64,000 nucleotides of DNA, taken from the NCBI RefSeq assembly GCF_963921235.1, contig NC_086107.1, positions 101,744,001 through 101,808,000 of the forward strand, written 5' to 3'. This DNA is from Mobula hypostoma (taxonomy: Eukaryota). This document shows, one piece after another, positions 5,362 to 60,234 of the stretch. The notes under the pieces were generated by a model. It worked only from the letters and a program-made list of their open reading frames with translations. It had not been told where the DNA came from and made no database searches. A program made the translations under genes and the position numbers. How positions within the stretch are numbered: the stretch's first letter is position 1; each line of letters starts with the position of its first letter.

Positions 5362-6020
5362 GACACACAAAATGCTGCAGAAACTGAGCGGATGAGACAG
5401 CATCTATGGAAGGAAATAGACAATCTACATTTTCTTCACAACCCATCTTTGGGGCTGGAAAGGATGAGAGGAGATAGTTACCAGATGTTAGAGAAATAGA
5501 TGTTTATGTCATCAGATTGGAGACTACCAAGGTGGAATATGATATGTTATTCCTCTAGCATGCATCTGGCCTCAACTTGGCAGCAGAGGAGGCCCTGGAC
5601 AAATACATCAGTGTGGGATTGGAAACTGGGTGATCTTGACTATTATGGCAGAGGAGTGAAAGTGCCTATACATTCCTCTCTCTGGTTCCCCTCCCCATTT
5701 CTTTCCCTTTATTCCATGGTCCACTGTCCTTTCCTACTGGATTCCATTTTCAGCTCTTCACCACTTCCACCTATCACCTCCCCCTCCTGCCTATCTTTCC
5801 CAATCGCCTAGATTCACCCATCACCCACTAGCTCTTGCTCCAATCCCCAGCCACTCTTTTGCACTATCTCCCCTTGTTCTTTCCAGTCCTGAAGAAGGGT
5901 CATGACCCAAAACTTCTACTGTCCATTTCCCTTCACATTGATGTGGCTTGGCTCATTTGAGTTCCTCTAGCATTTTGTGTGTTGCTGCAGATTCTCAGCA
6001 TCTACATTCTCTTGGGTCTC
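5362..6020. mobile_element. Penelope-like fragments in inverted arrangement
   Basis: Minus-strand terminus plus GIY-YIG C-terminus (5480-5620), then a plus-strand UTR with degenerate hammerhead CAGTCCTGAAGAAGGG..CCCAAAAC (5884-5920). Confidence 0.75.
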
Positions 6021-6469
6021 CATCTGGGCAAAGATTCTCTGCAAGCCCTTTTTAATCAAACCTGAGCACCATGAGAACAACTTGCTGTTCTATAGAAGAT
6101 GTAAATCATACAACGGAAACTAATGCATTTACACTGCAGTTGCAAAGCCTTCCTATTCAACGCATTGACTGCAATTTAAGCATTAACCTTTGTCTTTGAA
6201 CACTGCATAATGTGAGGTTTGATAACTGAAATTGACAAGCCTTTCTACAATGGAAAAGCTAAGTTCTAGTCTCTGCATTAAACTATAAATCGAAGTCAAA
6301 AAGACTTGCTCCATCCCACTAGGCACAACCTGTAAATTTTCAGGTAGCCTTTCCATTTCACCAAGCATTGCATCATCTGCAGCAAGTGATGGCTGCTCAA
6401 GGAACTCAGGCTCAGGGGAGAGTTACCTGAACACTGTTTCAGAAAGCAGTCATACCCATTAGATTAACT

Positions 6470-8345
6470 ACTTCAAATTTGGTCTGTGGCCAGTGTCAAG
6501 ACTGTGTGACTGCAAGTGAGGCAGACAGGGGGGTCCAAGATATAGTACTGGAGGAGACTCAGCCCTTTAACCTGTCCAAAAGGTTTGAGATTGTTGCTCC
6601 CTGTGAGGATGAGAGTGGGAGCTGAAGGAACGATGAGCAACAGAACCCTGGCACTGTAGTTCAGAAAGTCATTCAAGAGTGGGGACAGAAGAGAAATGCA
6701 GTTGTAATTGGAATAGCATAGTCACGGAAAAAGACACAATTCTCTGTCACAAGAATCAAAAAGTCCCAATGGCTGCGTGGTCTACATGATGTCCGAATTC
6801 AGACATCTCATCTGACCTGCAGAGGAATTAGAATGGGAGGGGAAAAATCCAATTGTCATGATCCACAAAGTTAGGTAGAGGGACAGGCAGTGTTGAGGAA
6901 GCAGGGAGTCTGCAGAAGAATGAGCAAAGAAATAGCAAATGGAAAATAGTGTAGGGAATAGTATGCTATTGCATTTTGGTAGAAGGAATAAAGGTATAAA
7001 TTATTTTCTAAACAGGAAGCAAATTCAGAAATCAGAATCCAAAGGGACTTGGGATTCCTAATGCAAGATTTCCTAAAGGTTAACTTGCGGGTTGATTTAG
7101 TAATATGGAAAGCAAGTGCAGTGTTAGCATTCATTTCAAGAGGACCAAAATGTAAAATCAAAGATGTAATGCTGAAACTTTATAAGGCATTGGTCAGACT
7201 GCATCTGGAGCATCGTGAGCAGTTTTGGGCCAAACTATCATTCCTATAAACTCCTTCTTGGAGATGGTACAGAGAAGGTTCATGAGAATGATCCAAGGAA
7301 TAAAAGGGTTAACGTATGAGGAGCATTTAATGGCTCTGGTTCTGTGCTCACTAGAGTTTAGAAAAATGAGGTAGGGCTGATCTCGTTGAAACCTATCGAA
7401 TATTGAAAGGCCTGGAGTGGGGAAGTCTAGGACCTGAGGGCAGAGCCTCGGAATATAAGGACATCACTTTAGAACAGAGATGAGGAGGAATATCTTTAGT
7501 CAGAGGGTGGTGAATCTTTGGAATTCATTGCCACAGGTGACTGTGGAGGCCAAGTCATTGGGTATATTTAAAGCGGAGGTTAATAGGCTCTTGATTAGTG
7601 AGGGTGTTAAAGCTTATGGGGAGAAGGCAGGAGAAGAGAGGGACAGAGATTTTCAGAGAGAAATTTATAAATTAGGAATCAGGCAACTGAAGGCAGGGTC
7701 CTTGGATTGTCAAACGGTAAAATACAGGGCATGCAAAAAGCCGGGTCAGTGGCATGAGCACATGGTTCTGGTTTTCTAGCTATTAGGAAGGATGTCATTA
7801 AGTTGAAAAGAGTGCAGAAAATAGCTAAAGGATACTGGGACTGGAAGGCTTGAGTTATAAGAAGAGGCTGGATGGGTTGGGGCTTTTTTCCATGGAGTGC
7901 AGGAGGCTGAGAGTAACCTTATAAAGGTTTATAAAATCATGAAGGATGGAAGGGAGGGAGGTTCTAAAGCTAAAGAGCATAGCTTAAAGGTGAGTGGGAA
8001 AGATTTAAGAGAGATCTAAGGGGAAACTTTATTACGCTGAAGATGCTTTTTTATGGAATGCGCTGCCAGAGAAAGCTGTACAAAGGGTGAAATTACAATA
8101 ATTGAAAACCACAGGTCACATGGATAGGAAAATTTTAGAGGACGTGGGCCAAAACTGGCAAATGGGACCATGAAGAGTACATCTTGGTCAAAAGATACAG
8201 GTTGGGCCAAAGGGTCTGCTTCTCTGCTGTATCACTATGAATGCAGTTGAGAAGGATAAGAAATCAGTCATGATCAAATGGTGGAACAGATACGATGGGC
8301 CGAATGGCCTCCCTGTCCCCCCCCCCCCCCATGTCTTAAGTTCTG
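6470..8345 (+). mobile_element. Cluster of CR1 fragments (ORF1 piece and two ORF2 3' ends)
   Basis: LYKALVRLHLE, FSQRVVNLWNSLPQ and CR1 3' tails. Confidence 0.85.
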
Positions 8346-8493
8346 ATGAGTACCATAACCTTTGAAATTATCATGTAAGTCAACCTGTGTGGGAAAATAG
8401 ACTTTTATGTCTGCTATCATTTATCTTATTTCATCCACACCCCCCCCCACACACACACCCTATTCACTGTCCAAAGACTAATACTTCACTAAC

Positions 8494-8880: not shown

Positions 8881-9090
8881 ACATCTAGTGGCCACTTTAT
8901 TAGATAAACCTGTACACCTGCTTGTTTATGCAAGTATCTAATCAGCCAATCTTGTGGCAACAACTTAATCCATAAAAGCATGCAGACATGGTCAAAAGGT
9001 TCAGTTGTTGTTCAGACCAAACATCAGAATGGGGAAGAAATGTGATCTAAGTGACTTTGACTGTAGAATGGTTGGTGCAGTTAGACAGGT
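8881..9090 (+). mobile_element. Tc1-like transposon 5' end fragment
   Basis: AGTGGCCACTTTATTAG TIR-like start, then MGKKCDLSDFD..MVGA transposase N-terminus. Confidence 0.7.
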
Positions 9091-10267
9091 ATCATGGAGA
9101 CTGGAACAATGAGCGCAGAGACATGTTCATGATGGCTATGTAATGAGTAATTAAGGTAAAGAGGAAGGATCAGAGAATTAAGAGAAAGATCAAGGAGACA
9201 TATTCTTTAAGACAGCGGTCCCCAACTACCGGGCTGCAGAGCATGCGCCACCGGGCCGCGAGGAAGCGATATGATTTGGTCAGCTGCACCTTTCCTCATT
9301 CCCTGTCACAGCCACTGATCAGCCATTACACATGCGAGGTCATGACCCGCGTGTCATCCGTGTCAGGGCGGGAAGGCGATCAACTCCTCGAGCTTGCAAA
9401 TGACAGTGGGCTGAAAAGTATGTTTGACATAACATCTCTGTCAGCATTCTGGATCAAAGTCAAGGCTAAATATCCTGAGATAGCCACGAAAGCACTGAAA
9501 ACGTTGCTTTCATTTCCAACATTTTTCTGCGAAGCGGAGTTTTCTGCAATAAATGCAACGAAAACTAAATTGCGGAATAGACTGGACATCAGGAACCCCC
9601 TTCAAGTATCGCTGTCTCCCATCACCCCTCGATAGGACGTTGTTGTTGCAGGGAAACAAGCCCAGGGCTCCCACTGATTCAGCGATATTGGTGTGTTGCA
9701 ATGATTTTATATATTCATACGGGGAAAATATATGCTGTGTGTTTAATATCCAAATATTACTTAAAATGTTATTATGCTATTGACTTATAAGTGACTTATA
9801 TAACCATATAACAATTACAGCACGGAAACAGGCGACCTCGGCCCTTCTAGTCCGTGCCGAACGCTAATGTCACCTAGTCCCGCCGACCTGCACTCAGCCC
9901 ATAACCCTCCATTCTTTTCCTGTCCATATACCTATCCAATTTTTCTTTAAATGATCATATCGAACCTGCTTCTGCCACTTCTACTGGAAGTTCGTTCAAC
10001 TCTTCAAGCTCCCCTGATAATTGATTTCTCATTATATCCATGCGAGGAAAATATGCGGTGTGTTTAATATTAAATTCGTTAGATAAACCCTTTTAGAAAC
10101 AAAATTGAGTGTATTACCCACTTATCACCTATATTCCGGTAGTGATTAACACCCACCCCCACGAACAGAATCGCCAAAAAAGATTTGCTTTGGGGGGGGG
10201 AGGAGGAGGAGGAGGCAGGTAACGACGCGCATGCGCATTGGTGCCCGCGCAATGCTTCATGGTCATT

Positions 10268-10504
10268 TTAAACGTAAACAACAGGAATTCTGCAGATGCT
10301 GGAAATTCAAGCAACATACATCAAAGTTGCTGGTGAACGCAGCAGGCCAGGCAGCATCTATAGGAAGAGGTACAGTCGACGTTTCAGGCCGAGACCCTTC
10401 GTCAGGACTGACGAAGGGTCTCGGCCTGAAACGTCGACTGTACCTCTTCCTATAGATGCTGCCTGGCCTGCTGCGTTCACCAGCAACTTTGATGTATGTT
10501 GCTT
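10268..10504. mobile_element. Young Penelope-terminus insertion forming a perfect 97-bp inverted repeat
   Basis: Arms 10309-10405 and 10408-10504. TSD TGCTTCATGGTCATT (10253-10267 / 10500-10514). Confidence 0.9.
10373..10410 (-). ncRNA. Minimal type I hammerhead ribozyme motif
   Basis: Minus strand reads CAGTC CTGACGA AGGGTCTCGGCCT GAA ACGT C GACTG: stem I CAGTC/GACTG, CUGANGA and GAAA cores, short stem II, palindromic ACGT stem III, GUC cleavage triplet. Confidence 0.8.
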
Positions 10505-11623
10505 CATGGTCATTGTAGTCTTTTGGGTAAACAACGCATTTGGCTGCTACTCTTGTTCGTTGGCAACCCTACCGCCCCCGGTCGGCCGGTCCGCAAGAAT
10601 ATTGTCAATATTAAACCGGTCCGCAGTGCAAAAAAGGTTGGGGACTCCTGCTTTAAGAGCTTCTACATAGAGACAGCATGGGCAAGGGTAAAAATGAAGA
10701 ACGAAAGAAGGCCACAGGCCTTGAATGAAATAATTCTTCTACCCACAAACTATCTTGTAAAAGCACTTACTTTATGGATCCACTCTTTTTCACCTCCTTT
10801 TATCTTCCAAAAGTTAAAAAAAAAATAAGATGCCAAATAAAAACTTAATATGGAGGAATAGATGCTCATTAAAAGGTTGACTTGTGTCTGACATACAACC
10901 TGAGGAAGAGACATGAACACATCTCCAATAAAGCTTTGCAACTTCACCCCCTACCTCATTTACCCCTTTGCAATAAAGCTGAAGTGACCAAACTGGAGTT
11001 GGAATTTTTTTAAATCTTAGCCAAGGTCAGTTTGACAACACCCCAAAATCAACAACTTCTAGAATAGACCACCACTTCAAGTTATAGATCATTCTGACTT
11101 ATATTATCAGACCCTCATTGTCACTAGGTCTAAATTTTGGAATTCCCTCCCTTAAAGCATTATAGTAATAGCTTTACCAGAGCACTGCAGTTGTTCAAGA
11201 CAGCTGCTTACCACTATCTTCTCAAGAGTAATTAGAAATGAGTAATAAAATGCTGGATTTGAAAGTAACAACCAGACCAAAAAAAATTAGTAAAAAAATG
11301 ATCATTTGACCCAATCCCAATAATTACTAGATACTTCACGGAAGCACATTCCTAAATTATGTGACCAGATACTAAATGAATGAGAAGTGTGCTACTAACA
11401 AACTATGACTATCTCAAGGAAGGTAAAAGAAAGGTAAATAAATTTACTCTAAAGAAACTAATTATTAGGTTAATATCACCATATTTCATTGTAATTTATT
11501 ATATTTTAAAAGTGATTGAAAGAAACTTCTAACTGAAAATAATAACATTAATGGCATTAAAACTAATAATCAAAACAAATTTTAGAACTAAAATACCACA
11601 CAGAAAATACACTTCAAACTTAC

Positions 11624-12024: not shown

Positions 12025-12362
12025 AAAAAAAACTGCTCATGCTCGAAATCTAAATTAAAAACAAAATGCTGGAAATACTCTACAAGTCAGGCCTAAAATG
12101 TTGGAAGGAAACAATTATTGCTTCAGGTTGAAGACCCATCATCAGAATGTCAGACCCTTCAATATTAAACATTAACTTTGTTTCTCTTCCCGCAGATTTC
12201 CAGTGCTTTCTGATATTGTTTTCTCACTTTTGCAATTCTGATAAAGGGTTGGTGGTTCTGAAGCATTACTGTTTATCTCTGCACAGATGCTATCTGACCT
12301 GATGAGTGCTTCCAGCATTTTCTATTTTTCACTTCAGACTTCCAGCATCTGTATTTGTTTAT
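12025..12362. mobile_element. Older Penelope-terminus inverted pair
   Basis: Degenerate AAATGCTGGAAATACTC ... CAGATGCTATCTGACCTGATGAGT..TCCAGCATTTT. Similar decayed copies lie at ~38055-38187, 42480-42610 and 42715-42885. Confidence 0.65.
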
Positions 12363-13234: not shown

Positions 13235-13771
13235 TCAGACCACTCTAGGTGAATTGTGAGCATTTTTGGGTCCCTTATATAAGAAAAGATATGCTGACAT
13301 TGGAGAGGGTCCAGAAGAGGTTCATGATTCTGGGAATGAATGGGTTAAGATACAAGAAGCATTTGATGGCTCTGGGCTTGTACTTGCTGGAGTTTAGAAG
13401 AATGGGGGGGATGTCATTGAAACTCATCGAATATTAAAAGACTGAGATAGAGTGGATGCGGAGAGGATATTTCCTATAGTCGGAGAGGCTAGCACCAGAG
13501 GGCACAACCTCAGAATAGAGGGACACCACTTTAGAACAGAGATGAGGAATTTCTTTAGCCAAAGGCTGGTGAATCTGTGAAATTCATTGCCAAGTCATTG
13601 GGTATATTTAAAGCAGAGGTTGATAAGTTCTTGATTAGTAAGGGTAGTGAAAGGTTTTGGGGAGAAGGCAGGAGAATTGGGTTGAGAGGGATAATAAATC
13701 AGCCATGATGAAATAGTGGAGCAAACTCAATGGACCAAGTGGTCTAATTCTGCTCTCATGTCTTATGGTCT
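13235..13771 (+). mobile_element. CR1 3' fragment
   Basis: FWVPYIRKDMLTLERVQKRF and tail TCTTATGGTCT. Confidence 0.9.
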
Positions 13772-13925
13772 GAAAGGGTCCAATTGTTCTAGTAAGCTCT
13801 GCTTTTTCATGTGAATATTAAATAAGATACAATAAGCGAAACTATAATATATGGTAGACTAGAAGAATGTTGCTTTTCCCATCCTATCATATCATCTTGA
13901 TATTTTTATTTCTCCAAATACTTAC

Positions 13926-17902: not shown

Positions 17903-18078
17903 CCACACATACAGTCACAACAGACATTTCCAACCATGCTCCTGTATTTCCACTACTAATAATCTCTCCACCTACTCCCAAGATCTGTAGCCTTCTCGAT
18001 ATCTTTCTTCTGCTAGTTCCACAACAAAAATAAAGAATTCCACTGATAGACGGTATTGAACCAAACTAGCCTGAGTCC

Positions 18079-18389
18079 AATCACAAGCAAGAGAAAACCT
18101 TCAGATGCTGGAAATCCAAATAACACACACAAAATGCTGGAGAAACTCACCAGGCCAGGCAGTATCTATGGAAAAGATTACAGTCGATGTTTAGGGCCAA
18201 GACCCTTCATTAAGACTGGGTAAAAAGATGAGGAGTCAGAGTAAGGTTGAATTCCCCTCCCCCACTTTCTTACTGACTCCTCATCTGTTTTTTCCAGTCT
18301 TGATGAAGGGTCTCAGCCTGAAACATCAACTATACTCTTTTCCATAGATGCTGCCTGGCCTGCTAAGTTCCTCCAGCATTTTGTGTGTG
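18079..18389. mobile_element. Penelope-terminus inverted pair with decayed hammerheads
   Basis: Inverted arms and TSD TAGCCTGAGTCC (18067-18078 / 18390-18401). Confidence 0.85.
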
Positions 18390-18839
18390 TAGCCTGAGTC
18401 CCGGGCTTTAATATGTCTTTTTGAGTGCCACAGAATTTATAGATCTCTTTCCTTAAATTACAGAGGGTCATGAAGCAAGCTATCAGGGAAAATCCAGAGA
18501 GAATCTCCTATCTAATTGTGTATTAATGCACAATTGAGCATTCATACACAATTAGAGTCAGGACAACATGGTAAGCTTCATTCTTCAGTGGCTCTCAGTG
18601 CAGTATTTACCAAATATTCTTTAGAGGCACAAGGGAATGCAGATGTCTCTGGTCAAGAGGCCACCAAGCAGTGATGTCCATTGATGATGTGGCTCAGACT
18701 TGGCTGTTTTTTGTTGGTATTTGTTGGAAACAGGGCAGAGACATAGGGTTTAGGGTCAGGAATGAGGGGTAGTTAAAGGTCAGGGACAGTAAATTAAGAG
18801 CCTGGGCAGGAAAATAAGTCCAGATTGAAGCACTCTGTG

Positions 18840-19620
18840 GTCGAACCTTAGCGATCCCGAAATTTCTGTTGCAGGACTGAGGAGAATGATCCCAGTTTGG
18901 AATTTCTGTTGCAGGACTGAGGAGAATGATCCCAGTTTGGAGACCCATACTGTTGGCGAGAGTACCAAGTACAGGGGGGTGGTGGGGGGGGGGTCATGAA
19001 TACCAGTGGACCCCCCCAGATCACCTACATTGGAGCTCCGTGAAAGTCCTATAGTCAAGGCCCATGTGAGTCTAGAAAAAGAGGCCCAAAGATCAAACTT
19101 GGCAAAGTCCGTAGGGCAATGCCAAAAGTCAAAGTCATGGGCACTATGGGGAGATAGAAGCCTGAAGGATGAAGTCCAAAGATAGAAGCCTGAAGGAGTC
19201 ACGAGGCCCCAAGCTGCCATGGTTGGTAATCCGTGCAATTCGGAAGTCGAGGCCAAAGGCCAACTCGTGATCAGTGTCCTGGGGTGAACTTAAAAATTGA
19301 AGGCCTGATGTCTGCAAGTCAGAGAATCTAGGATAAGGACTGCAGGTCTGGAGGTGTTGAAGGCCTGTATGGGTGTGTGAGAGGGTGGGAGGTTTTGGGA
19401 AAGGATTTTGTTTTGCTGTTGGCATTGTTTTGCTTTGTTGCTGTTGCGCTTGTATTGTTCTGCGGAACATAGTGGGCATGTTATGTTGGCGCCAGAATGT
19501 GTGGCGACAATTGCGGGCTGTCGCCAGCACATCCTTGGGTATGCTGGTTATTAATGCAAATGATGCATTTCACTGTATGTTTTGTTGTACATGTGATAAA
19601 TAATTCTGAATCTGAATCAG
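18840..19620 (+). mobile_element. Repeat with Rex-like 3' end and internal tandem duplications
   Basis: Ends in gcatttcactgtatgttt...aaataattctgaatctgaatc. Exact 40-bp tandem duplication at 18861-18940. Confidence 0.5.
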
Positions 19621-19627
19621 CTAGAAT

Positions 19628-20285
19628 CTGAAGCAACACACAATCTGCTGGTAGAACACAGCGAGTCAAGCAGCATCAGTGGGAGGAAAGAAACTGTGGA
19701 CATTTCAGGCCAAAACCCTGCATCAGGACTGAGAATAGAGAGGCAAAGTGGTTAACATTGAGAAGAGAAGGGCAAGAAGGGACTTCAAGGCATCTGGTAG
19801 ACTGAAGGAGGAGGACAAGATGACAGGCAGGTTCTGTCATGTAGGAGAGGTGAGGTTGGGGTGTGCATGGGGAAACCGTAGTCAGTAAACAATAAACAGA
19901 AGCAGACAGAGAGAGGAAAAAGAAGAAAATTTACAGACAGTGCAAGGTAGGGGAGAAGCATGTGAAGATGAACGATAAGCAGGAATACTATTGCTGGATT
20001 CTGATAAGCAAAGTAGTTGAGAATAGGAACCATTAGGAGAGAGCAGAACCTATTAGGAGGTTGGGGTGGGGGAGGGAAAATACATGTGTGCTGAGTTAGT
20101 AGATGGACGAGAAAGGGGACAACAATAGGTGAGGGGGGCTGGGGAGGGTGAAAGAGAAGTCAAAAATGGGAAGGCTGGAGGATCAGAAGAAGGGAGTGAT
20201 AAATGTGGAGAGAGAAATTATAAAAAAGGGGAGAAGGTATTACCTAAAATTGGAAAACTCAACATTCATGTCACTGGGCTGTAGT
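19628..20285 (-). mobile_element. Penelope-like 3' end (GIY-YIG tail, UTR, terminus)
   Basis: Minus-strand LQPSDMNVEFSNFR* at ~20240-20285 and a decayed hammerhead at ~19695-19731. Confidence 0.75.
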
Positions 20286-21002
20286 CCTTGCACCCGATTA
20301 ATATTTCTCCATTTAGTGGATCAACTAAATGGAGCATATAGGCTCCAGAACTGTGAAATTGGCCTGTGTAAATTTTTTGGCAAAAGATTTACTAATTTCT
20401 TGCTAATATTATTTGACAGTATGAGTAACATGACCAGCTCTGCTCAACAGATTAGTTTTACAGTTGCACGTGCACAATTTGTGCCCACTGTATTAATGAA
20501 GTCAATCTTTGAACAACTTTGATATGACAGCTGCTCTACAAAATTGCACAATATTTCAGTTTATACTGATACATCAACAACACCTGCTCTTCTGTTATTG
20601 ATACAAATAACATCCAGAATCCACACATGGCCTTCTTAATCTAAGATACTTTGCTCTTTAAAAACAGCAAAACCAGCCATGGTATTCCTGGAACACAACG
20701 TATCAAAAACCTCATCATGCTGGTGAATCCACAGCTGCTTGAATGAATGGTACATGTCTGACACATGGCTATGGCTAATTGTTTCTCTGACCAATCCACA
20801 TCTCATACACATGCCTCACAACATAGCAATTTACCATATGAAATTTACCAATTTCCCCTACCAACCATCAACTGTTATTTAAAGAGATACTCTTCTTCAT
20901 CTCTGCAATCAGATTTCTGAACAGTTCATGAACCCAAGAACACTACTTCATTATTCCTTTGTTTGTTCTAATTATAATGCTTGGGGAAATGGTCAAGGAT
21001 AT

Positions 21003-23239: not shown

Positions 23240-23564
23240 CACTCCTCTCTGCTTAGCTATAAACTTCAACTCAATAGAGAATGTATCTCAAGTATATACA
23301 CAGTATATCATATAATACAACTACTACATACAGACATCCACAGCATAGTAAGTTTTAAATTCTCCCACTTAGGCCTAAAGATTTAATCACTGCGGAAGAT
23401 TTATTATTCTTGTGGAATAACATCTTTCCTGACAAGGGAGGTCACTTTGCTTGGCAAGTGAGACTTGTGGCTGTGAAAATAATCTCAGGTTCTGGGGCCT
23501 CCTCCGTGGTGGTTGTAGGAGTTGACTCAGACTGCAGGAAATTATTCTGATAGTGGTAGCCACC

Positions 23565-24106
23565 TTTGTTCTCCTTCCTTTTCTCCTTCTAATTTCTGCA
23601 TCTTGATCTTGGGAAGATGCATTTAATTCACTAGAGTATTTTCTTATTAATCCTTCTATTGTTCTCTTTACAATCTGATCTCTCCTCTTGGTTTTCTCAC
23701 CCCCAACATCATCTGACAAATCTTGTTTTCGTATCTCCATTGACTCCTTTTTTTTAGGCCATTCATCTGTCTGGGCTTTGGTCTTTGCATTTACTTTTAC
23801 AAGCAGCCTTTCACTCCCACTTGAAGTTCATGTACCCAGAAAAGATTCTCATTCTTTATACTCAAAAAAGGCCAATGCTTGCATTTTTCCTGAATCTCCT
23901 TGAACTCTCTTCCAGCTTAAAACCAAGCCACATTTCACAAGTAACTGCCTGATTAACATATCAGAAGTTTTCTCAGATATGCTGCCAACAAAAACAGTTG
24001 TAGTCGGACCACTACTTTTGTCACCTTCATGATTCCTCTGAGCAGCATGGTCCTTCCTTGGTCCAATATTCTTTCCAACCAGAGGCACAGAGGTTGGCAC
24101 CAACAC
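23565..24106 (-). pseudogene. RBM25: Intronless RBM25 retrocopy fragment (RRM and downstream region), disabled
   Basis: Translates to VLVPT...GPTTTVFVGSISEKTSDMLIRQLLVKCGLVLSWKRVQGDSGKMQA...EYKE*...LLVKVNAKTKAQTDEW...TKRRDQIVKRTIEGLIRKYSSELNASSQ, closely matching RBM25. No introns; contains a stop, a deletion and frameshifts. Confidence 0.92.
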
Positions 24107-25056
24107 CCGTTCATCCTCTGTTGGGCCAAAATTCATGGTGTATAACATGGAGACAGTAGTGGCATCATCCAGCACCTTCCTTAATTTGCTTTCAGTTCGC
24201 TTCTTTGCAGGAGATGTGGCATGCAATTGGTGGATGGATTTCTAATCATGTTGTTGTTGACTCAGCCTATCACATCCCCACAAAGCTGGCCGATCTGATT
24301 TTACCACATACAAGCTCAATGTGGCTTTTTGGTTACTGTATTTCACTGTCACGTCATTCCCACTGGAGTTATCTTTTCTCCAGTACAAGTTCTTACATGG
24401 ATACCTACAGGCTTCAGTCTGATATCTTTGAAATGCTGTTCAAATTTATTTTGTGGAATGATAAACAGCTGAACCAGTGTCTAATTCCATTTTAACTAAT
24501 TTACTATTCACTTCTGGTGTAAGCCATATTGCTTGTCTACTGTTAGTTTTCACACTGCAAGTCTCAAGGCTACAATCCTGTGTCACTCTCATCATTGTAG
24601 TTTTTAATCAACAGCACGCAGGTCAATGCTCTCTTTGAAACTACAACTTGACTTTATCTTTTTCTCTTCCCTGTGCAGTCTCTTCATTTTTGTCTGCCTG
24701 ACATACTCTTTGTATGTGTCCTACTTTGTTGCACTTTCTGCAAGTTCGACCTTTAAATCTGCACTTGTTTGATGTATGTGAGCCCCTCCCACAGCAGTAA
24801 CACAATTTGTTCAGCCAGGCTGGTTTCTGTTTAGATGCTGCAATTTTGCTCATGCTCACTTTTATTCCTGACTGTAACTCAATTGCATTTCTGTCTGCCA
24901 TTTCCATTGAAAGAATAATTTCAACTGCTCTTTTAAATGTAAGTTGTGCTTTAGTTAGGAGCCATTTTTGAATGCTTTCTTGAAAGATTCCACAAACTAA
25001 ACGATCTCTCAGTGCATCATCATGCCCATTACTGAACTGACAACGCTCAGACAATC

Positions 25057-25144
25057 AACAGGAATTCTGCAGATGCTGGAAATTCAAGCAACATACATCA
25101 AAGTTGCTGGTGAACGCAGCAGGCCAGGCAGCATCTGTAGGAAT
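25057..25144 (-). mobile_element. 88-bp Penelope terminus inserted in Gypsy gag
   Basis: Near-identical to 10280-10366. TSD GCTCAGACAATC (25045-25056 / 25145-25156). Confidence 0.9.
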
Positions 25145-25440: not shown

Positions 25441-26225
25441 CTGCTATTTAATCAAACTCATCTATCTTTGCAACACATGACCATACACTTCCCCACACAG
25501 TATTTGTTCTGTCATTTCTTTGCCCATTCTCTTAATGTGTCTACTTTCCTCTGCAGACTCCCTGCTTCTTCAACATCACTTACCCCTCCACCTATCATTA
25601 CATCAACCACAAACAAACCTGGCCACAAAGACAATAATTCATCATCAAAATAATTCACATAATAGTGAAAAGAAGCAACTTCAACACCGACACCTGTGAA
25701 ACACCACTAGTCACCAGCAGCCAACCAGAAAGGGACCCTTTACTCTTTGCCTCCTGCTAGTCAGCCAATTCTATCCATGCTAGTATCTTTCCTCAAATAC
25801 CATCGGCTCTTAGCTTGTTTAGCAGCCTCATTGTCAAAGGCCTTCTGAAAATCCAAGTAAACAACAACCGCTGATTCTCCTTTGTCTAACCTGCCTGTTT
25901 TATTCCCTCAAAGAACTCCAACAGATCTGTCATGCAAGATTTCCCCTTATAAGGAAACCATCCTGACTTCATCCTACTTTACCATATGCCCCTAAGTAAC
26001 AGAAAACTTCATTCTTATTAATAGACTCCAACATCTTACCAACTACTGGTCAGGCTAATTTGCCTATAATTTCCTCTTTTTGCCTCTCTCTATTCTTAAA
26101 GAGCAGAGTGACATTTGCGATTTTCTAGTCCGCTGGAACTATTCCAGAATATAGTGATTTTTGAAAGATCACTGCTTTTGCATCCGCAATCTCTTCAGCC
26201 ACCTTTTTCAGATCCTAGGTATCTT
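25441..26225 (-). mobile_element. CR1 RT fragment truncating the Gypsy 5' end
   Basis: Reverse-complement CR1 RT sequence similar to 3240-3900. Confidence 0.85.
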
Positions 26226-42035: not shown

Positions 42036-42984
42036 GACTCCAGGTAAACATTAACTGGAATTATGGAAATTGAAGAAATTACAGCAGTAAGATTATTGTT
42101 CCGTTTGGCATAATTGACTGTGCACTACATCAATACGTTTGTATGTTTAACCAAAATAATCGAATGTGGTGGCATTGATATTATTGTACTCGTATAAAAA
42201 TTAGTAATCATTAACATTTAGAGTTTGAGAATCATGGCATTAAGATATGCTGGAAAAGTACAGAAAACAGCAGATTGAAGCAGTTCTGTTTGTGAAATTT
42301 TCACAGTTAAATATAATCACCAATTTGTTCCAAAAACATTTCCAAAGGTACCCTTCAGATTAATTTAATGTATTTTATTAATATATTCTGGGGTATTCTA
42401 GATCACCTGCACATGCATTGCGGTTTCTTTTATTAGCCAATGAATAAAGCATAGTGAAGAGATAGATAACTGTTTCTAGTCTTTAAAATAGCAGAATCAG
42501 GCAACATTTGTGAAGAAACAAGTTAATGTTTTAGGTCAGTCTCTGTCTTTGAGCAGATACTTCTTGACCTGCTGCTGAGTATTTTCAACATTTTCTGTTT
42601 GTATTGACATTCTTTTGCTTTTTTTATGGATAATCTGTAAACTTTTTGAGCATCTAACCCTTAAATGTTTTATTTTTATTTTAATTGGGTATTTGATACT
42701 GCCTGGAAAAGCTTGAAGCAGTAACACACACAAAATGCTAGAGGAACTGATGCAATCAATCTTGATGAAGGGTTTCAGCCCAAAGCATTGACTCTCCATT
42801 GCTGGTGCCTGATCTACTGAGTTCCTCCATAATCGTGTGTGTGTTTACTCTGGATTTCCAGCATCTGCAGAATTGCTTGTGTTCAAAATTTAAAACAGTG
42901 GGATGATTGAGTTTCTACAAGCACATCCAACATTTCTTACTGTTTTATAGCTCCACCTGTTAGAAATAAACTGATTCTAAGTGA

Positions 42985-43159
42985 AGAACAGGAATTCTGC
43001 AGATGCTGGAAATTCAAGCAACACACATCAAAGTTGCAGGTGAACGCAGCAGGCCAGGCAGCATCTCTAGGAAGAGGTGCAGTCGACGTTTCAGGCCGAG
43101 ACCCTTCGTCAGGACTAACTGAAGGAAGAGTGAGTAAGAGATTTGAAAGTTAGAGGGGC
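42985..43159 (-). mobile_element. Penelope-terminus insertion
   Basis: 16-bp TSD AACTGATTCTAAGTGA (42969-42984 / 43160-43175). Confidence 0.9.
43081..43116 (-). ncRNA. Minimal hammerhead ribozyme motif
   Basis: AGTC CTGACGA AGGGTCTCGGCCT GAAACGTC GACT within the TSD-flanked insertion 42985-43159. Confidence 0.78.
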
Positions 43160-43329
43160 AACTGATTCTAAGTGACTTCAGTTTTACTGGGCCCTTTCAG
43201 ACCACACGCTATCAATTGTTGTCTCAATTTCAGTAATGATGTTCTTATCTCAGGAATTCAATTCTTTTGTCCATCTATGAATAAAGCCAACGTGGAGACT
43301 CAAAGATAAGTGATCCAAATTAAGTGTAA

Positions 43330-44300
43330 TTTCCTGGAGTCTTATTTATTCATTCAGTTTAGGAAGCACGCTATGTTCCCATTGGCCATGAAGAAGGTGC
43401 AAAGCCAGATTTACAACAATGATATCAGACTAAAGGGGTTAGGTTGTGAGAATAATTTGCAAGCTAAGCTTGTACTTCCTTGAGCATGGTAATATTAAGG
43501 GATGATTCAATCCAGGTGTTACAAATGATTAGAAGTATTGATAGAGCAGGTTAAACATTGATCAATACAGCACAGGAACAGGCTTTTCGGTCCACTATGC
43601 CAACCTAAACTAACTCTGACTGCTTATACCTGGTCTGTATCCCTCAATTCCCTGCCAGTTCATGTGCCTGTCTAAATCCCTCCCGAATGTTATTGTACCT
43701 GCTTCCACTGCCACCCCTGGCAGCAGGTTTCAGGCACCTACCGTTGTCTGTTTTCTTTTTAAGGCCTTGTAACTCTCCTTAAACGTTTCCCCTCTTACAT
43801 TAAACTTACATATTTCCACCCTGGGGAAAAAAAGACGCTGACTATCTACCCTGTCTAGACTTCTCTTAATTTATGTCAAGTTGTCCCTCAGGCTTTGATA
43901 CTCCAGAGAAAACAATCCAAATTTGCCCTACCTTCTCTTATAGCTAATACACTCTAATCAAGGCAAGGTCCTCATAAATCTCTTCTGTACCTTATTGCAA
44001 ACTTCCACATCCTTTTGTAATTTGCTGATTAAAATTGCACACAATACTCTAAGTGTGGCTTTACCAAAGTTTTTTAAGCTGCAGCATGACTTACCAACTT
44101 TTATACTCAACACTTCAACTAATGAATGTATGCTGCACATCTTCTTTACCACCTATCTATGTTGTTGCCATTATACTATCTGGAAGTATTTCCTTTACAA
44201 AAGGGTAGTGGAAATCTGGAGACCATTTCCTAAAATTCTACTGAGGCCAAGGGTTCAATTGGAAAGTTGTAAACTGAGATTCATTGAAATTTCTTGAGTA
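43330..44300. mobile_element. CR1 fragments on both strands
   Basis: Minus-strand CR1 3' end (~43565-44170) nested in an older plus-strand CR1. Confidence 0.75.
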
Positions 44301-44789: not shown

Positions 44790-45545
44790 GGCAGAAATTC
44801 TTCCTTCCAAATCTTTTGAAAGGCATAGAACTTTCCCCTTAAAGATGTAATGGCAATGCTATTACCTCCTCACCTCCTGTTGCCTAGGGACCAAACATTT
44901 TTTCAGCAATTTGAGCAATTTTTTTCAGCATAGTCTATTACATTTACTGTTAATGATGTGGTATCCTCTATTGGAGAGACCAAATGAACATTGACTAGCA
45001 GCTTTCAAGATCATCTCCATTTGATCCACGTGCATGACCTGGAGTTACCTGTCACTTCAATTATTCGTCTTGTTCCCATTACTTCGCTGTCTGTTTCTGC
45101 ATTGCTCTGATAAAGCAGAATGTAAGCACAAGAAACAGCACCACCTTCCAGCTGGACACAGTAAATCCTTCAAGCTTCATTGAGTTCAATAATTTAGGAT
45201 AATAAGCATTTCTACTCCCACTCCATATTTGCAGCATCTCTTTGAAATGCATTTGGTAATTTTATATAATTGTTCTACACTTTCACTTGCTGTAGTTTTG
45301 TTACCTAGCACTATTATCAATGTTCTTATTTAGGTATAACCTGCTCTCCTTGCCAGTACAAATCTTTCCTTTCATTCTCTCCTTCCACTCCAGTGCCAAC
45401 CCCAGTACCTACCTATTAAAACTAGTGTATTTCTAACTATGCCTTGTTGTGACTGAAGTTCATCAACCTTAAACAATAATTCTTTATCGCTCCAAAGACG
45501 CTGCCTGGCTTGCTGGATATTGCCAGTATTGTTTGTTTTTACGTC
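44790..45545 (+). mobile_element. Old Penelope-like element 3' part (GIY-YIG endonuclease remnant and terminal repeat)
   Basis: ~44957-45198 reads CG..SIGETK*TL..SFQDHL...LPV.HFN...K.QH..FQLDT.NP....IEFNNL. It is followed by a pyrimidine-rich UTR and a degenerate GACGCTGCCTGGCTTGCTG terminus. Confidence 0.75.
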
Positions 45546-45986: not shown

Positions 45987-46443
45987 GACACAAGAGATAC
46001 TGCAGATGCTAGAAATCTTGAGCAACACACACAAAATGTTAGAAGAACTCAGATTAGGTAGCATCTATGGAAGGAAATATTTTAGTCTGAGACCCTTCAA
46101 CAGGACTGAGACTGTTTATTTCTCTCCAAAGATGCTACCTGATCTGCTGAGTTTCTCCATAATTTTGTATAAAGAGAATCAAAATACCTGTTATAATCCT
46201 GGATGTTCCTCCACCAAAAGAAGTTCAAAGAATGCTGGAGTGGTCTTGACTCAAGTGTTAGCACTTCAGTTAAGTGAACCATTGAGTATGTTCCATTTCT
46301 TCAATAATATCCTGAAATTCTCTGTGAAGTAATATCTCTGTGCTGGAAGCAACACGCACAAAATGCTGGAAGAACTTAGGCCAGGCAGCATCTATGGAAA
46401 AGAGTAAACGGTTGACATTTCGGGCTAAGACCCTTCAACAAGA
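45987..46443. mobile_element. Two Penelope-terminus insertions
   Basis: TSDs AAGAGAATCAAAA (45974-45986 / 46172-46184) and CTGTGCTGGAAG (46338-46349 / 46444-46455). Confidence 0.8.
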
Positions 46444-49160: not shown

Positions 49161-50934
49161 GGATATATCTTCTGATCTCCTGCAAAAATCTGACAAGGAT
49201 GCAGATTTTAAATTAACCAATGCATGTAACTAGATATGAAATATGTAAAACATGTTCAAAAGGAAATAAACTATGTAAGAGTTCTGCTTCTCTCTGTTCC
49301 TAATGGCAATGAAAATAGTCTTACCAAATGCAGTACCAAACAGGCCTTTCAGACCACTGTGTCTATACTGTCATGTGGTTACCAACAAATTCATGAGATG
49401 CCTTAGCAGTTTCTCTCTGTTCAATTTTATGAAAGATCACCTTTTTTTTCATCTTTACTATGGTCAAGTATTTGCATCATCATTAACTTGCTGAGCCTTG
49501 TTGCTGTGCAATTAACTTCCTTATAAATAAACTTGATTATTAGCGTTAGGCTGAGCATAACAATTTGGCAGGATGGTATTTATTGCTTTTGAAATAGAGG
49601 TTGAGATGGGCATCTTAAGTGGTCTCTAAAGTGTTATACTGTAATTAAAGAATAATTGTTAGTTCAGTAGCATATTGTTCCATTCATGGTGCATGTAAGG
49701 GCACAGGTTTCAATTCACCATGCCCTGTTGGTAAAGCAGCCTGTTGATGGAAGCCACTTTAATGTTGGGATCAATGATTGAAGTGTGAGCAGAAAACTCA
49801 GGCTTTAACATCAGTAAATACACTGTAATACTTCTTTATCACTTTGTTTCAATGAGTTTAAATAAAGCAACATAAAACAGCATTAAACAAATTTAAGCAA
49901 TTTCATTATACCATGTAACTACTTCCTTTGTAACTAAGTGCTAAAACTTCTCCAAGGGCACCACTAACTTCACATTCAGTGGCAACGTCTGATCTGAAAT
50001 TATTTTGGCAACATTAGTGCTGAAACCATGTTAGTGAATAAACCATGTTATTAAAAAGCACATTTTCACATGTTCCTCAATTCTTAATGTCTGTAGTGGC
50101 TTTTCTCTGCAAGGTGGTACCAGAAATGAAGGATATATATAGAGCCCTAAAGTAGCTGAAATAATTCAAAAATTCAAAGGTCAAAGTAAATTTATTACCA
50201 AAGTACATGTATGTCACCATATATTACCATGAGATTTGTTTTCTCGCAGATATAAACTGTACATTTAGACTCCTCATCCTAAGGAACACAATATCATGAT
50301 CAACACATATAACATACAAGCTGAAAGAAATACATCATTACTTTGTTAGCAATAATATTGTGTGTTATGCTGGGAATGTAAGGATGTAAGATGACAATTC
50401 TGCCTAAAGAGTACAGATATTGATACAGGAATTAATCTGAGCATTCGGTGAATGAGACCAAAAGATGTGTTTGGTGCCAGCTTGAAGGTAGAGGTGCCAG
50501 AAACGTTTCTAAATTCTGTGGAGGCGAGTGGAATGGAAAATGAGGACAAAAAAAACTGGGAAGGAGTAGAGGGGGCAAAATGAAATTGTTGAAAATGGAA
50601 TGGACATAGTCAAAGATCCTAGAAAATGTGGGAATGAATTCCCTGATGAGGAAAAATGAAATCATCTCAGGAACATTGGAAAGGAAGATGGCATTATAAG
50701 AACAAATGTGACAAAGGGAAAGAAACTAGAAGAATGAACTTCCCTTACAGGAAGCAGGGTGGTATAAGACATACCCAAAGCAGCTACCAATATAGGAATT
50801 GTAGTATGAGAGGCTTGTTCCCTGAAATGTCAACAGGATAGTTGAGGGAGAAGGAAGTTAAGAATCTGAAATTGACCAAATCGGTGAGTGGCAGCAAAGC
50901 TTTTACTTCAGGGTTTGATTAAGAAGTAGGATAC

Positions 50935-54593: not shown

Positions 54594-55810
54594 TTTATTT
54601 TATTTATTTAGAGATACAGCGCAAAACAGGTCATTCTAGACCAATAATTTGTGCCACCCAGCAACCACCTATTTAATCATAGGACAATTTACAATGACTA
54701 ATTAACCTACTAAACGGTACAGCTTTGGACTGTGGGAGGAAACTGGAGCACCCAAAGGAAACCTATGCAGTAAAAACATAAGAAATAGGAGCAGGAGTAG
54801 GCCATCCAGCCCATTGAGCCTGCCCCACCATTCAATAGGATCATGGCTGATCTATCCATAAACTCAGCTCCATCTGCCTGCCATTTCCCCATAACCCTTA
54901 ATTCCCTTACTATGTAAAAACCTATCTAACTGTTTCTTAAATATATTTAGTGAAGAAGCCTCAACTGCTTCTCTGGGTAGAGAATTCCACAGATTCACCA
55001 CTCTCTGGGGGAAAAACAGTTTCTCCTCATCTCCGTCCTAAATCTTCTCCCCTGAATCTTGAAGCAACGTCCCCTAGTTCTAGTCTCACCTATCAATGGA
55101 AACAACTTTCCTACTTCTATCTTATCTATCCCATTCAAAATTTTGTATGTTTCTATAAGATTCCTTCTCATTCTTCTGAAGTCCAGAGAGTATAGTCCCA
55201 GGCAACTCAATCTCTCCTCATAGGTTAACCCCTTCCTCCCTGGAATCAACCTGGTGAACCTCCTCTGCACTGCCTCCAAAGCCAGTATATCCTTCCTCAA
55301 GTATAGAGACCAGAACTGCACACAGTACTCCAGGTGCAGCCTCATCAGTACCCTGCATAGTTGCAGCATGACCTTCCTGCTCTTGAATTCAATCCCTCTA
55401 GCAATGAAGGCCAACATTCTGTTTGCCTTCTTAATAACCTGTTGTACCTGCAAGCCAACTTTTTATGATTCATGAACAAGCACTCCCAAGTCCCTCTGCA
55501 CAACAGCATGCTGCAATCTTTCACCTTTTAAATAATAATCTTCTCTTCTATTATTCCTTCCAAAGTGAGTGAGCTTGCATTTACCAACGTTGTATTCCAT
55601 CTGCCAGACCTTAGCCCACTCACTTAACCTATCTATATCCCTCTGTAGATGCTCCACATCCTCTGTACAATTTGCTTTTCCACTCAGTTTAGTGTCGTCA
55701 GTAATGGGGAGAACAGATGAACTCTGTAGACCATGCTGGAATTGAACTCCGAGTCTGACGCCCCGAGCTGTAATAGCATCACACTAACTGCTACACTACC
55801 TTCAGTGCCC
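54594..55810 (-). mobile_element. V-SINE-like element split by CR1
   Basis: Tail at 54594-54770 and tRNA head at 55700-55810. Confidence 0.75.
54774..55698 (-). mobile_element. Well-preserved CR1 3' end inserted in a SINE
   Basis: ORFs 54995-55453 and 55463-55657 encode the CR1 RT C-terminus. TSD CAGTAA (54768-54773 / 55699-55704). Confidence 0.92.
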
Positions 55811-56554: not shown

Positions 56555-56756
56555 ATCACAAACAAAAGAAAACCTGCAGATTCTGGAAATGCAAGCACAT
56601 ACACAAAGTGCTGGAGGAACTCAGCAGGCCAGGCAGCATCTATGGGAAAGAGTACAGTCGACGTTTCAGGCTGAAACCCTTCAGCAGGACTGGACCCAAA
56701 ACGTTGTCTGTATTCTGGCCTGGCCTGATGCGTCTCTCCAGCATTTTGTGTGTATA
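56555..56756. mobile_element. Penelope-terminus inverted insertion
   Basis: TSD ATTTGAGATCCA (56543-56554 / 56757-56768). The hammerhead core is mutated to CTGCTGA. Confidence 0.85.
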
Positions 56757-57510: not shown

Positions 57511-58962
57511 CATGTTGGTTGTCTGTTGTATCCAATGATGACAGTGAAACCTGCATGGGACAGTTTTTAAAGTGGAAAAACCATTGCATAGGAACAGTTT
57601 CACTCTCTTGACCTTGGATGTCTGGGTCCAGTGGGTTATGGTCCATCTACACACATATGTCTAAATAAGAATTGTGATGTAGGCTTGAGATTATTCCTCA
57701 GAATTTTATTAAGTATTCTCCTGTAGTCAAGGCCATAGAGGCCTCTAATGATTTCTGTGCATCTGGCACATTGCAATCTGTTTTATTAAATGGTCTTAAA
57801 TTTACATTAGGAAGAGGTTAGACTAAAACAATAAAATAATCCAGGGTCATACATTGGTTTGATTTGGGGTCAGTTATCTTTCAATCATCCTTGAAATGCA
57901 GGATGCTGATTCCTGAAACTAATTCTGATTACTCCTGCTTTAGGCTTGTTAAATAAGGACTAATTTTTATCTTGTAATGCCTGACACAGAAATGCTAATG
58001 ACTATTGCCTGTCAAAATATCTAAAATGAATTTACTTAAGCTTGCATAATGCTGACAAGTCAAGTAATTGCATTCAAAAAAATTCTATTCCATCTTACAG
58101 TATATGTATTTAATTTTTTATACCCTCTGCCCTCAAGAAAAGCAGAATATGGTAATTGGTGATGTGGTTGTCACAGAATCTTTCATTGTTGTATTAATGA
58201 CACGTTCATGATGAGCTGATTAACTAAAATGCCTGTGCAGATTGTTTAGATAAACTGCCAGCAAACTGGAATCAGATCTGCATAGAACCCAAGCAAAGAC
58301 ATTTGGGTGACTTTTCTTAAATGTTAGTCCTATTAGAGTTCTATTTTGGGAAAGGTTGAATTGATGAACTCATGCAGTGCCCTCTGGGCTAAGAAAGGGA
58401 ACAATCAACAAAAGCTCCTACTAGTCATTATCAGGAAATGATTCCTGCTGCAAAGTGCATGTCACCTATGCCTCAGTCAGTAGCTGAGTAAGAAAGGTGC
58501 TCTGTCCCATTTCAGAATCTTGAGCATGGAATCCAGGCTGGCATTCCAGTACATATTTGAAGGGGTGCTGCGCTATTATAGAATATAGAACAGTATAGTA
58601 CAGGAACAGGCTCTTTTGGCCCACAATGTCTCTGCTGAACACAACACCAAATTGAACTAAACTTCCTCTGCCTGTACATGATCCATATCTTTCTATTTCT
58701 TGCATGTTCATATGTTTATCCAAAAGCCTCTTAAATGCCCTGATCATATCTGAACATAGAACAGTACATCACAGGAATAGGGCATTTGGCCCACAATGTT
58801 GTGCCAAACCAGCAAAAAGTAAATCAAAAACACACACTAATCCTTCCTACCTACACCATGTCCATATCCCTCCATCTTCCTTATTTCCATGTGCCTATTC
58901 AAATGTCTCCTAAAAGCCTCTGATATATTTGCCTCTACCATCATAACAGACAGCACATTCCA

Positions 58963-59193
58963 TCTCTTTGAGGTATGCCTACCCTGAAGAAGTTTAAATC
59001 CTCTCTTCGACGGGAGTTCAGTGAGACCCTCTCTCACTGCTCCCCCTCTGTGATCTCCGCCTCTCTCCGCAACTCCTTCCCCATCTTTCATCCTTCAGTC
59101 CTGACGAAGGGTTCCAGCCCGAAACGTCGACTCATCGTTTCTAACTGATGCTGCACGACCTGCTGAGTTCATCCAGCGTACTGAAAGTGTTTC
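58963..59193 (+). mobile_element. Penelope-terminus insertion of a second subfamily, inside CR1
   Basis: TSD CACATTCCA (58954-58962 / 59194-59202). Intact hammerhead motif. Confidence 0.8.
59097..59132 (+). ncRNA. Minimal hammerhead ribozyme motif (variant stem II)
   Basis: AGTC CTGACGA A GGGT TCCA GCCC GAAACGTC GACT. Confidence 0.78.
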
Positions 59194-60234
59194 CACATTC
59201 CACGCATCCTCTACTCTCTGAGTAGAAAACTTTCCTCTCACCTCCCTCTTGAACTTACTTCCTCTCACCTTCAATGCATGCCTTCTGGTATTAGACATTT
59301 CAACCCAGGGAAACAGATACTCCCTGCCCAGTCTATGCCTCTCATAATCTTGTAAACCTCTATCAGTTCTCCCTCAGCCTTCAATAGTCCAGAGAAAATA
59401 ACTCAAGTTTACCCAGCCTCTCATGATAGCACATGCCTTCTAAATCAGGCAACGTCCTGCTAAACCTCTTCTGCACCCTCTCCAAAGCCTCAACATCCTC
59501 CCTGTAGTAGGACAACCAGAAATGTACACAATACTCCAGATGTGGCCTAACCAGAGTTTTAGAAGTTGCAACATAACCTCTTGACTTTTGAACTTAATGC
59601 TTTGACTAATAAAAGCAAGCATTCCATAAGTCTTCTCAACCACCTTATCCACCTGTGTACCCACTTTCAAGAAGCTATGTTCTTGGATCCCAAGATCTTT
59701 CTGCTCAGCAACGCTGTTAAGGACCTAGCCTTTAACAGTGTACTGTCTCCTTGCATTTGCCCAACAAAGATGCAATACCTCACATTTATTTGGGATAAAC
59801 TCCATCTGTCTTTTCTCAGGCCCTATCTGCATCAGATCTATATGATACTGTATTCTTTGCCAGTCTTCTACACTATCTACAACTCCACCAATCTTGGTAT
59901 CATCTACAAATTTACTAACCCACCCATCTACATTTTCATCCAGGTCATTTATACACATCACAAACAGCAGAGGTCCCAGCATAGATCTCTGCGGAACTCC
60001 ACTAATTACAGACCTCCAGCTCAAATAAGTTCCTTCAACCACTACCCTCTGTCTTCTATCAACAAGCCAGCTCTGAATCCAAACAGCCAATTTGCCACAG
60101 ACCCCATGCATCTTAATCTTCTGGATTAGCCTCATGAGAGACTTTGCCAAATGTCTTACTAAAATCCATGTAGACAACATCCACTGCCCTACCCTCATCA
60201 ATCTCTCTAATCATCATGTGAAAAAACTCAGTCC

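Follow-up and report, generated by a model that had tools for sequence, protein, structure and literature searches.

Short hammerhead-bearing insertions in a 64-kb stretch of Mobula hypostoma DNA are probably truncated copies of Penelope-like elements

Insertions of Penelope-like elements (PLEs) have been described as carrying an inverted 5'-truncated copy and a one-sided tail of 30–40 bp (PMC8557442), and the same pattern is reported with target site duplications (TSDs) of 8–10 bp (PMC3846280). In the account of the Poseidon element PAc of Anolis (Frangieh 2024, PMC11167929), the tail equals the distance between two start sites of the reverse transcriptase (RT), and both target strands are cut and extended. 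Minimal hammerhead ribozymes occurring singly or as opposite-strand pairs 100–700 bp apart have been ascribed to truncated PLEs (PMC4209133). We analyzed 64,000 nucleotides of repeat-rich animal DNA (40% GC) from Mobula hypostoma (assembly GCF_963921235.1, contig NC_086107.1, positions 101,744,001–101,808,000; hereafter the window, in whose own coordinates positions are given), which contain a dense set of short, TSD-flanked insertions with related termini. It is quite probable that these are ordinary insertion products, with truncation, of endonuclease-bearing PLEs, most likely of the Neptune group and belonging to several subfamilies, in this cartilaginous-fish genome. The observed basis consists of TSDs, an empty site, two 3' ends, head-to-head arms, a link to the PLE endonuclease and neutral decay of the copies.

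The insertions resemble those described for endonuclease-bearing PLEs (PMC3846280, PMC8557442) in their 5' truncation, head-to-head arm, junction at a palindrome or microhomology, one-sided tail of 30–40 bp, TSDs near 10 bp, terminal GIY-YIG domain and hammerhead within the terminus. They differ in that the TSD-bounded inserts consist of the terminus only (88–311 bp) and lie very densely (24 confident arms in 64 kb), in that TSDs reach 16 bp, and in a possible preferred 5' end at stem I of the hammerhead. With PAc as described (PMC11167929) they share two distinct 3' ends, separated by the length of the tail and located 3' of a minimal hammerhead, as well as products consistent with both strands being cut and used for priming, and a cleavage site that is not an end; in contrast to PAc, the lineage here is by proxy one with a linker zinc finger (Neptune type), no long open reading frame (ORF) starts from the hammerhead, and the eight TSDs show no AT bias.

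A nucleotide profile built from 12 arms and run on the window gave 26 matches at E<1 and 24 at E<0.01, covering 2,549 bp, and none in five shuffled windows or in the reversed window; the more than a dozen related termini reported in the initial annotation, an earlier reading of the sequence, are thereby borne out. On the hammerhead strand, the terminus runs from a pyrimidine-rich 3' untranslated region (UTR) into the 5' strand of stem I, the CUGANGA core, an extra A and a 4-bp stem II, and then through GAA-ACGU-C and the 3' strand of stem I into about 60 nt that lead to the inner end, with an optional tail of about 35 nt beyond it. The eight TSD-bounded inserts comprise four single arms, two with the tail and two without, and four head-to-head pairs of arms:

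10268–10499 (232 bp): two-armed; inverted arm with tail 10268–10411 (− strand), tail-less direct arm 10408–10504 (+ strand); 15-bp TSD at 10253–10267 and 10500–10514, 5 bp of which also match the tail-less element end
18079–18389 (311 bp): two-armed; only the inverted arm has the tail; both arms have decayed cores and are identical at 107 of 124 positions; 12-bp TSD at 18067–18078 and 18390–18401
25057–25144 (88 bp), − strand: single tailed arm, cut short 3' of the hammerhead and without ribozyme; young subfamily; 12-bp TSD
42985–43159 (175 bp), − strand: single arm with tail, complete hammerhead and about 43 nt of pyrimidine-rich sequence upstream; 16-bp TSD at 42969–42984 and 43160–43175
45987–46171 (185 bp): two-armed, tail on the inverted arm; direct arm begins at the cleavage site, with the 3' strand of stem I; 13-bp TSD
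46350–46443 (94 bp), − strand: single tail-less arm ending at the outer edge of stem I; 12-bp TSD
56555–56756 (202 bp): two-armed, tail on the inverted arm, mutated core; 12-bp TSD
58963–59193 (231 bp), + strand: single tail-less arm of a different subfamily, with about 134 nt upstream of the hammerhead; 9-bp TSD

All eight TSDs claimed at 9–16 bp are exact, and the claimed insert size of about 90–310 bp agrees with the measured range. In a control of 3,000 randomly placed sites searched over equal windows, 0.07% gave a match of at least 12 bp and 0.9% one of at least 9 bp. An inverted arm stands beside a direct arm in four of the eight TSD-bounded inserts and in three older copies, and in all four TSD-bounded pairs only one arm bears the tail. 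The earlier description of short TSD-flanked units was sound as far as it went, but it overlooked this defining inverted second arm with its one-sided tail. In 10268 the arms are identical at 97 of 97 positions and overlap by two bases at the center, which makes a near-perfect palindrome. The tailed arm lies on the left in all four TSD-bounded pairs (chance 1 in 8) and on the right in the old copies 5363 and, apparently, 42707.

No TSD was found in the seven older copies tested, where the best match is 4–6 bp. The older copies and fragments in the window are:

5363–6017: two-armed, no TSD; the inverted arm (−) runs into the endonuclease end, and the direct arm (+) has the tail
12028–12353: inverted and direct arms, no TSD; possibly two events
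19620–20302, − strand: single copy with the last 20 endonuclease codons (20243–20302, weak), about 500 nt of 3' UTR and the terminus
38055–38187, + strand: single arm with tail, starting at stem I; no TSD
42707–42882: short inverted arm and direct arm with an apparent tail; no TSD
44927–45532, + strand: frameshifted GIY-YIG remnant (44927–45193), 3' UTR and decayed terminus (45464–45532)
28921–28986 (+), 35317–35381 (+), 39472–39563 (−) and 42496–42601: very old terminus fragments

In the 5363 copy, about 200 nt of 3' UTR present in the direct arm are missing from the inverted one; at this place (5469–5490, −) the stop codon meets the pre-hammerhead tract at a shared word of 9–10 bp, resembling a microhomology deletion.

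Recent mobility, as had been proposed, is evident from the exact TSDs, the young near-identical copies and an empty site that is clean. In a related organism, E, one contig reads 42890–42968 and then directly 43160–43420, omitting exactly the 175-bp insert and one 16-bp TSD of 42985, with 13 differences in 340 flanking positions; in organism B the insertion is present, and a contig runs from the element interior into the right flank. The young trio 10268, 25057 and 42985 shows pairwise identities of 128/134, 86/87 and 84/87 (95–99%), in line with the earlier mention of three near-identical copies. Because most arm pairs outside the trio are only 65–88% alike, several subfamilies of different age are present in the window. 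The inserts are thus no single family with a common structure (four two-armed inverted, four single-armed).

The terminus family is very large, with 81,077 (run X1), 48,144 and 12,654 contigs matched in three DNA runs; 5,088 contigs were matched in run X16, whose RNA label is a guess and whose loose ends are the same as those of the DNA runs. Pattern scans for further loci gave 0 and 0 in viral contigs and 0 and 0 in metagenome contigs. Two rearranged joints of the family, 43066 to 42987 and 43013 to 43048, have contig depths of 195 and 135 against about 9 in the unique flank (X1), which suggests small amplified derivative subfamilies, namely a partial tandem without hammerhead and a form with a 34-nt deletion.

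The link to PLEs comes from coding remnants. Their scores, for the endonuclease remnants against the endonuclease of a whale-shark protein with RT and GIY-YIG, were compared with those of shuffled sequences:

5469–5633, − strand: C-terminal GIY-YIG remnant directly upstream of a terminus; score 96, shuffled maximum 43.5 (n = 40)
44927–45193, + strand: frameshifted GIY-YIG remnant; score 89.5, shuffled maximum 51 (n = 40)
20243–20302, − strand: weak GIY-YIG remnant; score 48, shuffled maximum 45; tblastn E = 0.004
50446–50878, − strand: decayed remnant of the RT C-terminal region, no terminus nearby; score 110, shuffled maximum 60.5 (n = 15); profile iE 0.0007

Shuffles were used instead of random segments, whose control maxima of 96 and 84.5 probably come from segments overlapping true remnants. 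Each of the three endonuclease remnants, all in old copies, is followed on its own strand, and in the right order, by a terminus; the initial annotation had placed such remnants at 44957, 5480 and 20240, of which the first two are clear and the third is weak. The 48 residues encoded at 5481–5624 find nine proteins at E≤0.001 among 1.84 billion; since Pfam gives no match for this remnant, its identity rests on homologs. The closest named protein matches of the endonuclease remnants are skate and whale-shark gene models, and one match led to a whale-shark protein with RT and GIY-YIG, the closest RT-bearing relative, which in turn finds 97 longer proteins, mostly RT–endonuclease ORFs of 820–1,100 residues. 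A profile of 41 mostly distant PLE proteins recovers the RT remnant well and 44924–45059 at chance level only. In the linker region, 40 of the 41 aligned relatives have a Cx2-5Cx2C motif, and the window itself holds no linker. This type of motif is described as marking Neptune and Nematis (PMC8557442), and Neptune and Poseidon are given as the groups found in vertebrates (bioRxiv 10.64898/2026.07.22.740005). Because of the relatives' motif and this vertebrate distribution, the elements likely belong to the Neptune clade, an assignment by proxy.

Four gene models, P0004 (a skate neuromedin-U receptor model), P0003, P0134 and P0135, end in an exon derived from a PLE endonuclease; these terminal exons are likely annotation artefacts or cases of exonization.

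Three of the 15 arms that reach the core carry a complete hammerhead motif:

10372–10410, − strand: full minimal type I hammerhead, with a 5-bp stem I, a 4-bp stem II and the palindrome ACGU
43079–43118, − strand: complete minimal hammerhead; putative scissile bond between 43085 and 43084
59096–59133, + strand: complete minimal hammerhead within the 58963 insertion

The initial annotation had likewise counted three copies with the full motif, and the minimal design with a palindromic ACGU is present in all of its parts (conserved core, an additional base following A9, both stems, and a palindrome at 15.2–16.2). A fourth arm (10408, +) keeps the core; at the inversion junction, the 5' strand of its stem I is missing. 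The motif agrees with the minimal type I hammerheads described in metazoan PLEs (Cervera and De la Pena 2014, PMC4209133) in the extra nucleotide between 9 and 10.1, the G at 10.1, a stem I of 4–5 bp, the lack of a helix III loop, the palindromic 15.2–16.2 and the occurrence singly or in opposite-strand pairs. It differs in its 4-bp stem II, as against 7–8 bp in the Schistosoma examples described there, and in position 11.1, which is U in six and C in six of 13 aligned arms.

The initial annotation had looked to a covariance-model search and to covariation in stems I and II as checks on this motif. The Rfam scan of the window returned seven matches to E = 10, none of them a hammerhead, and its microRNA matches merely reflect palindromes. 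Two double-sided changes are seen in the stems (covariation 0.211; 167 of 500 shuffles as high). Stem variation is one-sided (G-U/G-C), also genome-wide, where it amounts to 19% (X1) and 74% (X12) at 43093. Pairing is 98% in stem II, 77% in stem I and 86% of cells overall, against 16–42% with slid partners, for a structure that was derived from the same sequences. The folding z-scores of 12 hammerhead stretches are unremarkable, 11 being above −2, and the monomer is predicted to fold into a hairpin that sequesters the core, 4 kcal/mol below the active skeleton. In X1, by a rough, contig-weighted estimate, decay at the catalytic CpGs (G8, ACGU and the GUC cleavage site) is 7.5–9.9% of depth, compared with 8.6–12.5% at CpGs outside the core; since catalytic CpGs decay like other CpGs, no selection for catalysis is visible in the copies. 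The two hammerheads of a head-to-head insert cannot dimerize within one transcript, because they are on opposite strands. Lunse is said to have reported in 2017 that PLE hammerheads cleave as dimers, and in the source elements the hammerhead would probably work as a dimer or with the help of a protein.

It is thus truncated PLE insertion, named in the initial annotation only as an alternative, that fits the TSDs, the inverted arms, the one-sided tail and the endonuclease link. By analogy with PAc biochemistry, an RT–GIY-YIG protein would bind the pseudo-long terminal repeat (pLTR) of the transcript and nick the two target strands 9–16 nt apart. Reverse transcription would then start from a nick at one of two internal sites about 35 nt apart, which would give arms with or without the tail and accords with the two 3' ends seen. 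Judging from the structure of the inserts, synthesis would mostly stop after 90–230 nt, often just past the hammerhead hairpin, and the cDNA would either join the other target end, leaving a single arm, or be accompanied by a second, inverted arm. The second arm may arise when the second nick primes synthesis at the other start site, or when the first arm folds back and is copied, with the arms fused head to head via 2–3 nt of microhomology, and gap filling would leave the TSD that is present at each insert. The hammerhead would travel with the pLTR as a passenger, being retained by the source elements and subject to neutral decay in their copies.

Several observations weigh against this explanation. 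The endonuclease link is seen for old subfamilies only, and the window contains no autonomous partner of the young 10268/25057/42985 subfamily, nor any full-length or partial-tandem autonomous copy. The layout differs from that of PAc, whose ORF starts in the hammerhead, whereas here the frame starting there closes within about 16 codons; and the AT content of the eight TSDs (58%, window 60%) reveals no AT-rich target preference, unlike the ATT preference of PAc. The copy at 12028–12353 has tail-like sequence on both arms, and the present structures do not separate twin priming from fold-back as the source of the second arm. Moreover, the 5' ends are not random. On the model, whose core begins at position 22 and in which cleavage comes after position 49, the eight main arms, read by hand, end at 61, 18, ~18, 16, ~15, ~−10 to −17, −25 and −116. 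Four of the eight therefore lie at 15–18, a span of 4 nt and inside a 7-nt stretch at the outer edge of stem I, about 32–35 nt upstream of the cleavage site. The clustering, a post hoc test on n = 8, gives P = 0.0095, 0.064, 0.016 and 0.078 under four nulls; the end at ~−10 to −17 was entered as −20, and the result is unchanged by this. Randomly distributed truncation points had been held to speak against a distinct non-autonomous family; the ends do vary, from 61 to about −116, but they lean towards the stem I edge. Summed contig depth, which does not equal copy number and was not used as such, is 13.1 M in the core and declines in steps, to 5.0 M and then 1.2 M, towards the upstream side; other copies continue past 43158.

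The loose ends at 42987 and 42990 were considered as RT start sites and rejected; the reference tail differs there from that of the majority, which runs about 12 nt further.

One explanation of the stem I cluster would be that RT runs off a defined RNA 5' end and leaves 'strong-stop-like' copies. That end would be the A lying four bases before the core, as a transcription start or a processed end at a splice acceptor. RT initiation 100–135 nt downstream would then copy to the end of the RNA, many short inserts would be complete copies of a short 5' segment, and the inserted copies could be transcribed and remobilized like a short interspersed element (SINE). We regard this as unlikely, while granting it some real weight. 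Besides the four main arms, the second arm of 10268 ends close by, at 22, and 43116, the position of that A, appears in all four runs among the six loose-end places listed (284, 275, 232 and 43 contigs), with long, heterogeneous loose parts of median length 93, 157, 79 and 77 and agreement of 0.37–0.52; X12 also lists 43115 (91 contigs, median 206, agreement 0.35). Points of subfamily divergence, in comparison, have loose-length medians of only 11–25. However, the reference copy diverges from other subfamilies just upstream of 43116, which would therefore collect ends of other-subfamily copies from a wider stretch, and the loose consensus reads for about 20 letters as the upstream sequence of another subfamily. 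In six arms a pyrimidine tract followed by YAG-TC stands at this place, and the A lies in a YYANWYY initiator-like context, but both motifs are short. The Penelope promoter, start site and an intron are described as lying in the pLTR (PMC2377424), and the Penelope intron as ending at the 5' end of helix I (PMC4209133). Against this stand the small sample in the window (n = 8, P up to 0.078), the four main arms that end elsewhere and the fact that contigs do not display RNA ends. That the outer edge of stem I marks a defined RNA 5' end is possible but unproven. That a PLE protein mass-produces short inserts by internal priming about 100–135 nt from such an end and run-off there, followed by a jump or fold-back helped by stem I, is a doubtful proposal; a narrow literature search found no 'strong-stop'-type proposal for Penelope elements. 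If true, PLE replication would yield the short inserts as a 'strong-stop'-like product, which would map the PLE transcript start from genome data alone, a SINE-like non-autonomous cycle could be seeded without a separate master gene, and the hammerhead fold would shape integration even without cleaving.

The initial annotation had suggested a retrozyme-like non-autonomous family; in such a family, tandem units would be transcribed, cleave themselves as dimers into monomers or circles and be reinserted by a PLE protein in trans. The defining traits of retrozymes are given as head-to-tail units that each bear a complete hammerhead, together with monomeric and circular RNA (PMC7229834; bioRxiv 10.64898/2026.07.22.740005). 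The inserts do share with the described non-LTR retrozymes (Cervera 2020, PMC7229834; Li 2026, bioRxiv 10.64898/2026.07.22.740005) that they are short, non-coding, hammerhead-bearing, related to pLTRs and flanked by TSDs of more than 4 bp; vertebrate retrozymes are reported to derive from pLTRs and to occur in the one chondrichthyan sampled (bioRxiv 10.64898/2026.07.22.740005). The intact minimal hammerhead in three arms and the size of the family (81,077 contigs in X1) would also suit this explanation. However, there is no head-to-tail array of units among the 26 terminus matches and 18 tandem-repeat rows of the window, and the inserts have no fixed unit length and fall into several subfamilies. 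Elsewhere in the genome a small number of contigs do have units joined head to tail (the commonest joint listed, 43116 back to 43082, occurs in X1, X5 and X12 with 2, 2 and 1 contigs; another, 43115 back to 42997, in X1 and X16), but joints in so few contigs are also expected from PLE partial tandems. The cleavage site is the start of none of the eight main arms and of one of 12 arms overall (the second arm of 45987), and it is not among the 24 loose-end places listed, beside which there are 814 more. The motif is of the minimal PLE type and not the canonical type I with loop contacts described for retrozyme repeats (PMC7229834), and the opposite-strand hammerheads of head-to-head arms allow no dimer in cis. 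Covariation does not exceed the shuffles, and catalytic CpGs decay as other CpGs do. The retrozyme explanation is thus largely refuted for this window and highly improbable. A literature search found no paper on a non-autonomous Neptune-type Penelope element of sharks.

Palindromes are unstable, which would favor loss of palindromic centers after insertion. That the short units are relics of longer insertions, shortened later in this way or by pLTR–pLTR recombination, is nevertheless extremely improbable: internal deletions are visible in the older two-armed copies 45987, 56555 and 5363 and solo pLTRs are described (PMC3846280), but the youngest two-armed copy, 10268, keeps a near-perfect palindrome with identical arms and a 2-nt center, and the single arms, whose TSDs are intact, break off at various points within the pLTR, which recombination between full pLTRs would not produce.

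Truncated PLE insertion, the explanation we prefer, is an ordinary one, in that the pattern is already described for PLEs and the small question remaining is why many stumps stop at the same spot. The window offers a dense, young sample, with clear boundaries, of an insertion pattern that is known yet poorly explained, in a genome with tens of thousands of family contigs and with empty sites that can be read from relatives. Counting alone could address two questions about PLEs, namely whether the inverted arm arises by twin priming or fold-back and whether synthesis stops at the transcript start. If the stem I hot spot holds, the two RT start sites known in vitro would be tied to a defined RNA end, and the hammerhead region would gain a role in integration.

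Other elements of the window include, at 8994–10650, a hAT-type DNA transposon relic by appearance, which encloses the 10268 insertion and has a transposase-like frame at 9147–9635 without Pfam match; its terminus near 10650 we take to be Charlie-like. At 24641–25054 (−) there is a gag-like remnant whose zinc knuckle is weakly matched in Pfam (E = 0.0024, below cut-off), probably from a long terminal repeat retrotransposon, with the 25057 insertion at its edge. Two intronless open frames at 23387–24241 (−) look like a processed pseudogene, with no match in Pfam or in a structure-sequence search; they presumably resemble the RRM region of RBM25, a name that is unconfirmed. The 3' part of a non-LTR RT ORF at 31811–33142 (+) is fairly intact (RVT_1 E = 2e-19, ALKBH8_N-like C-terminus), and we assume it to be Rex1/L2-like. 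Decayed 3' fragments of CR1/L2-type long interspersed elements lie in both orientations at 2898–4543, 6871–7779, 13293–13777 and 25476–26212, and further ones at 29457–30002, 35981–37526, 54864–55783 and 59563–61626.

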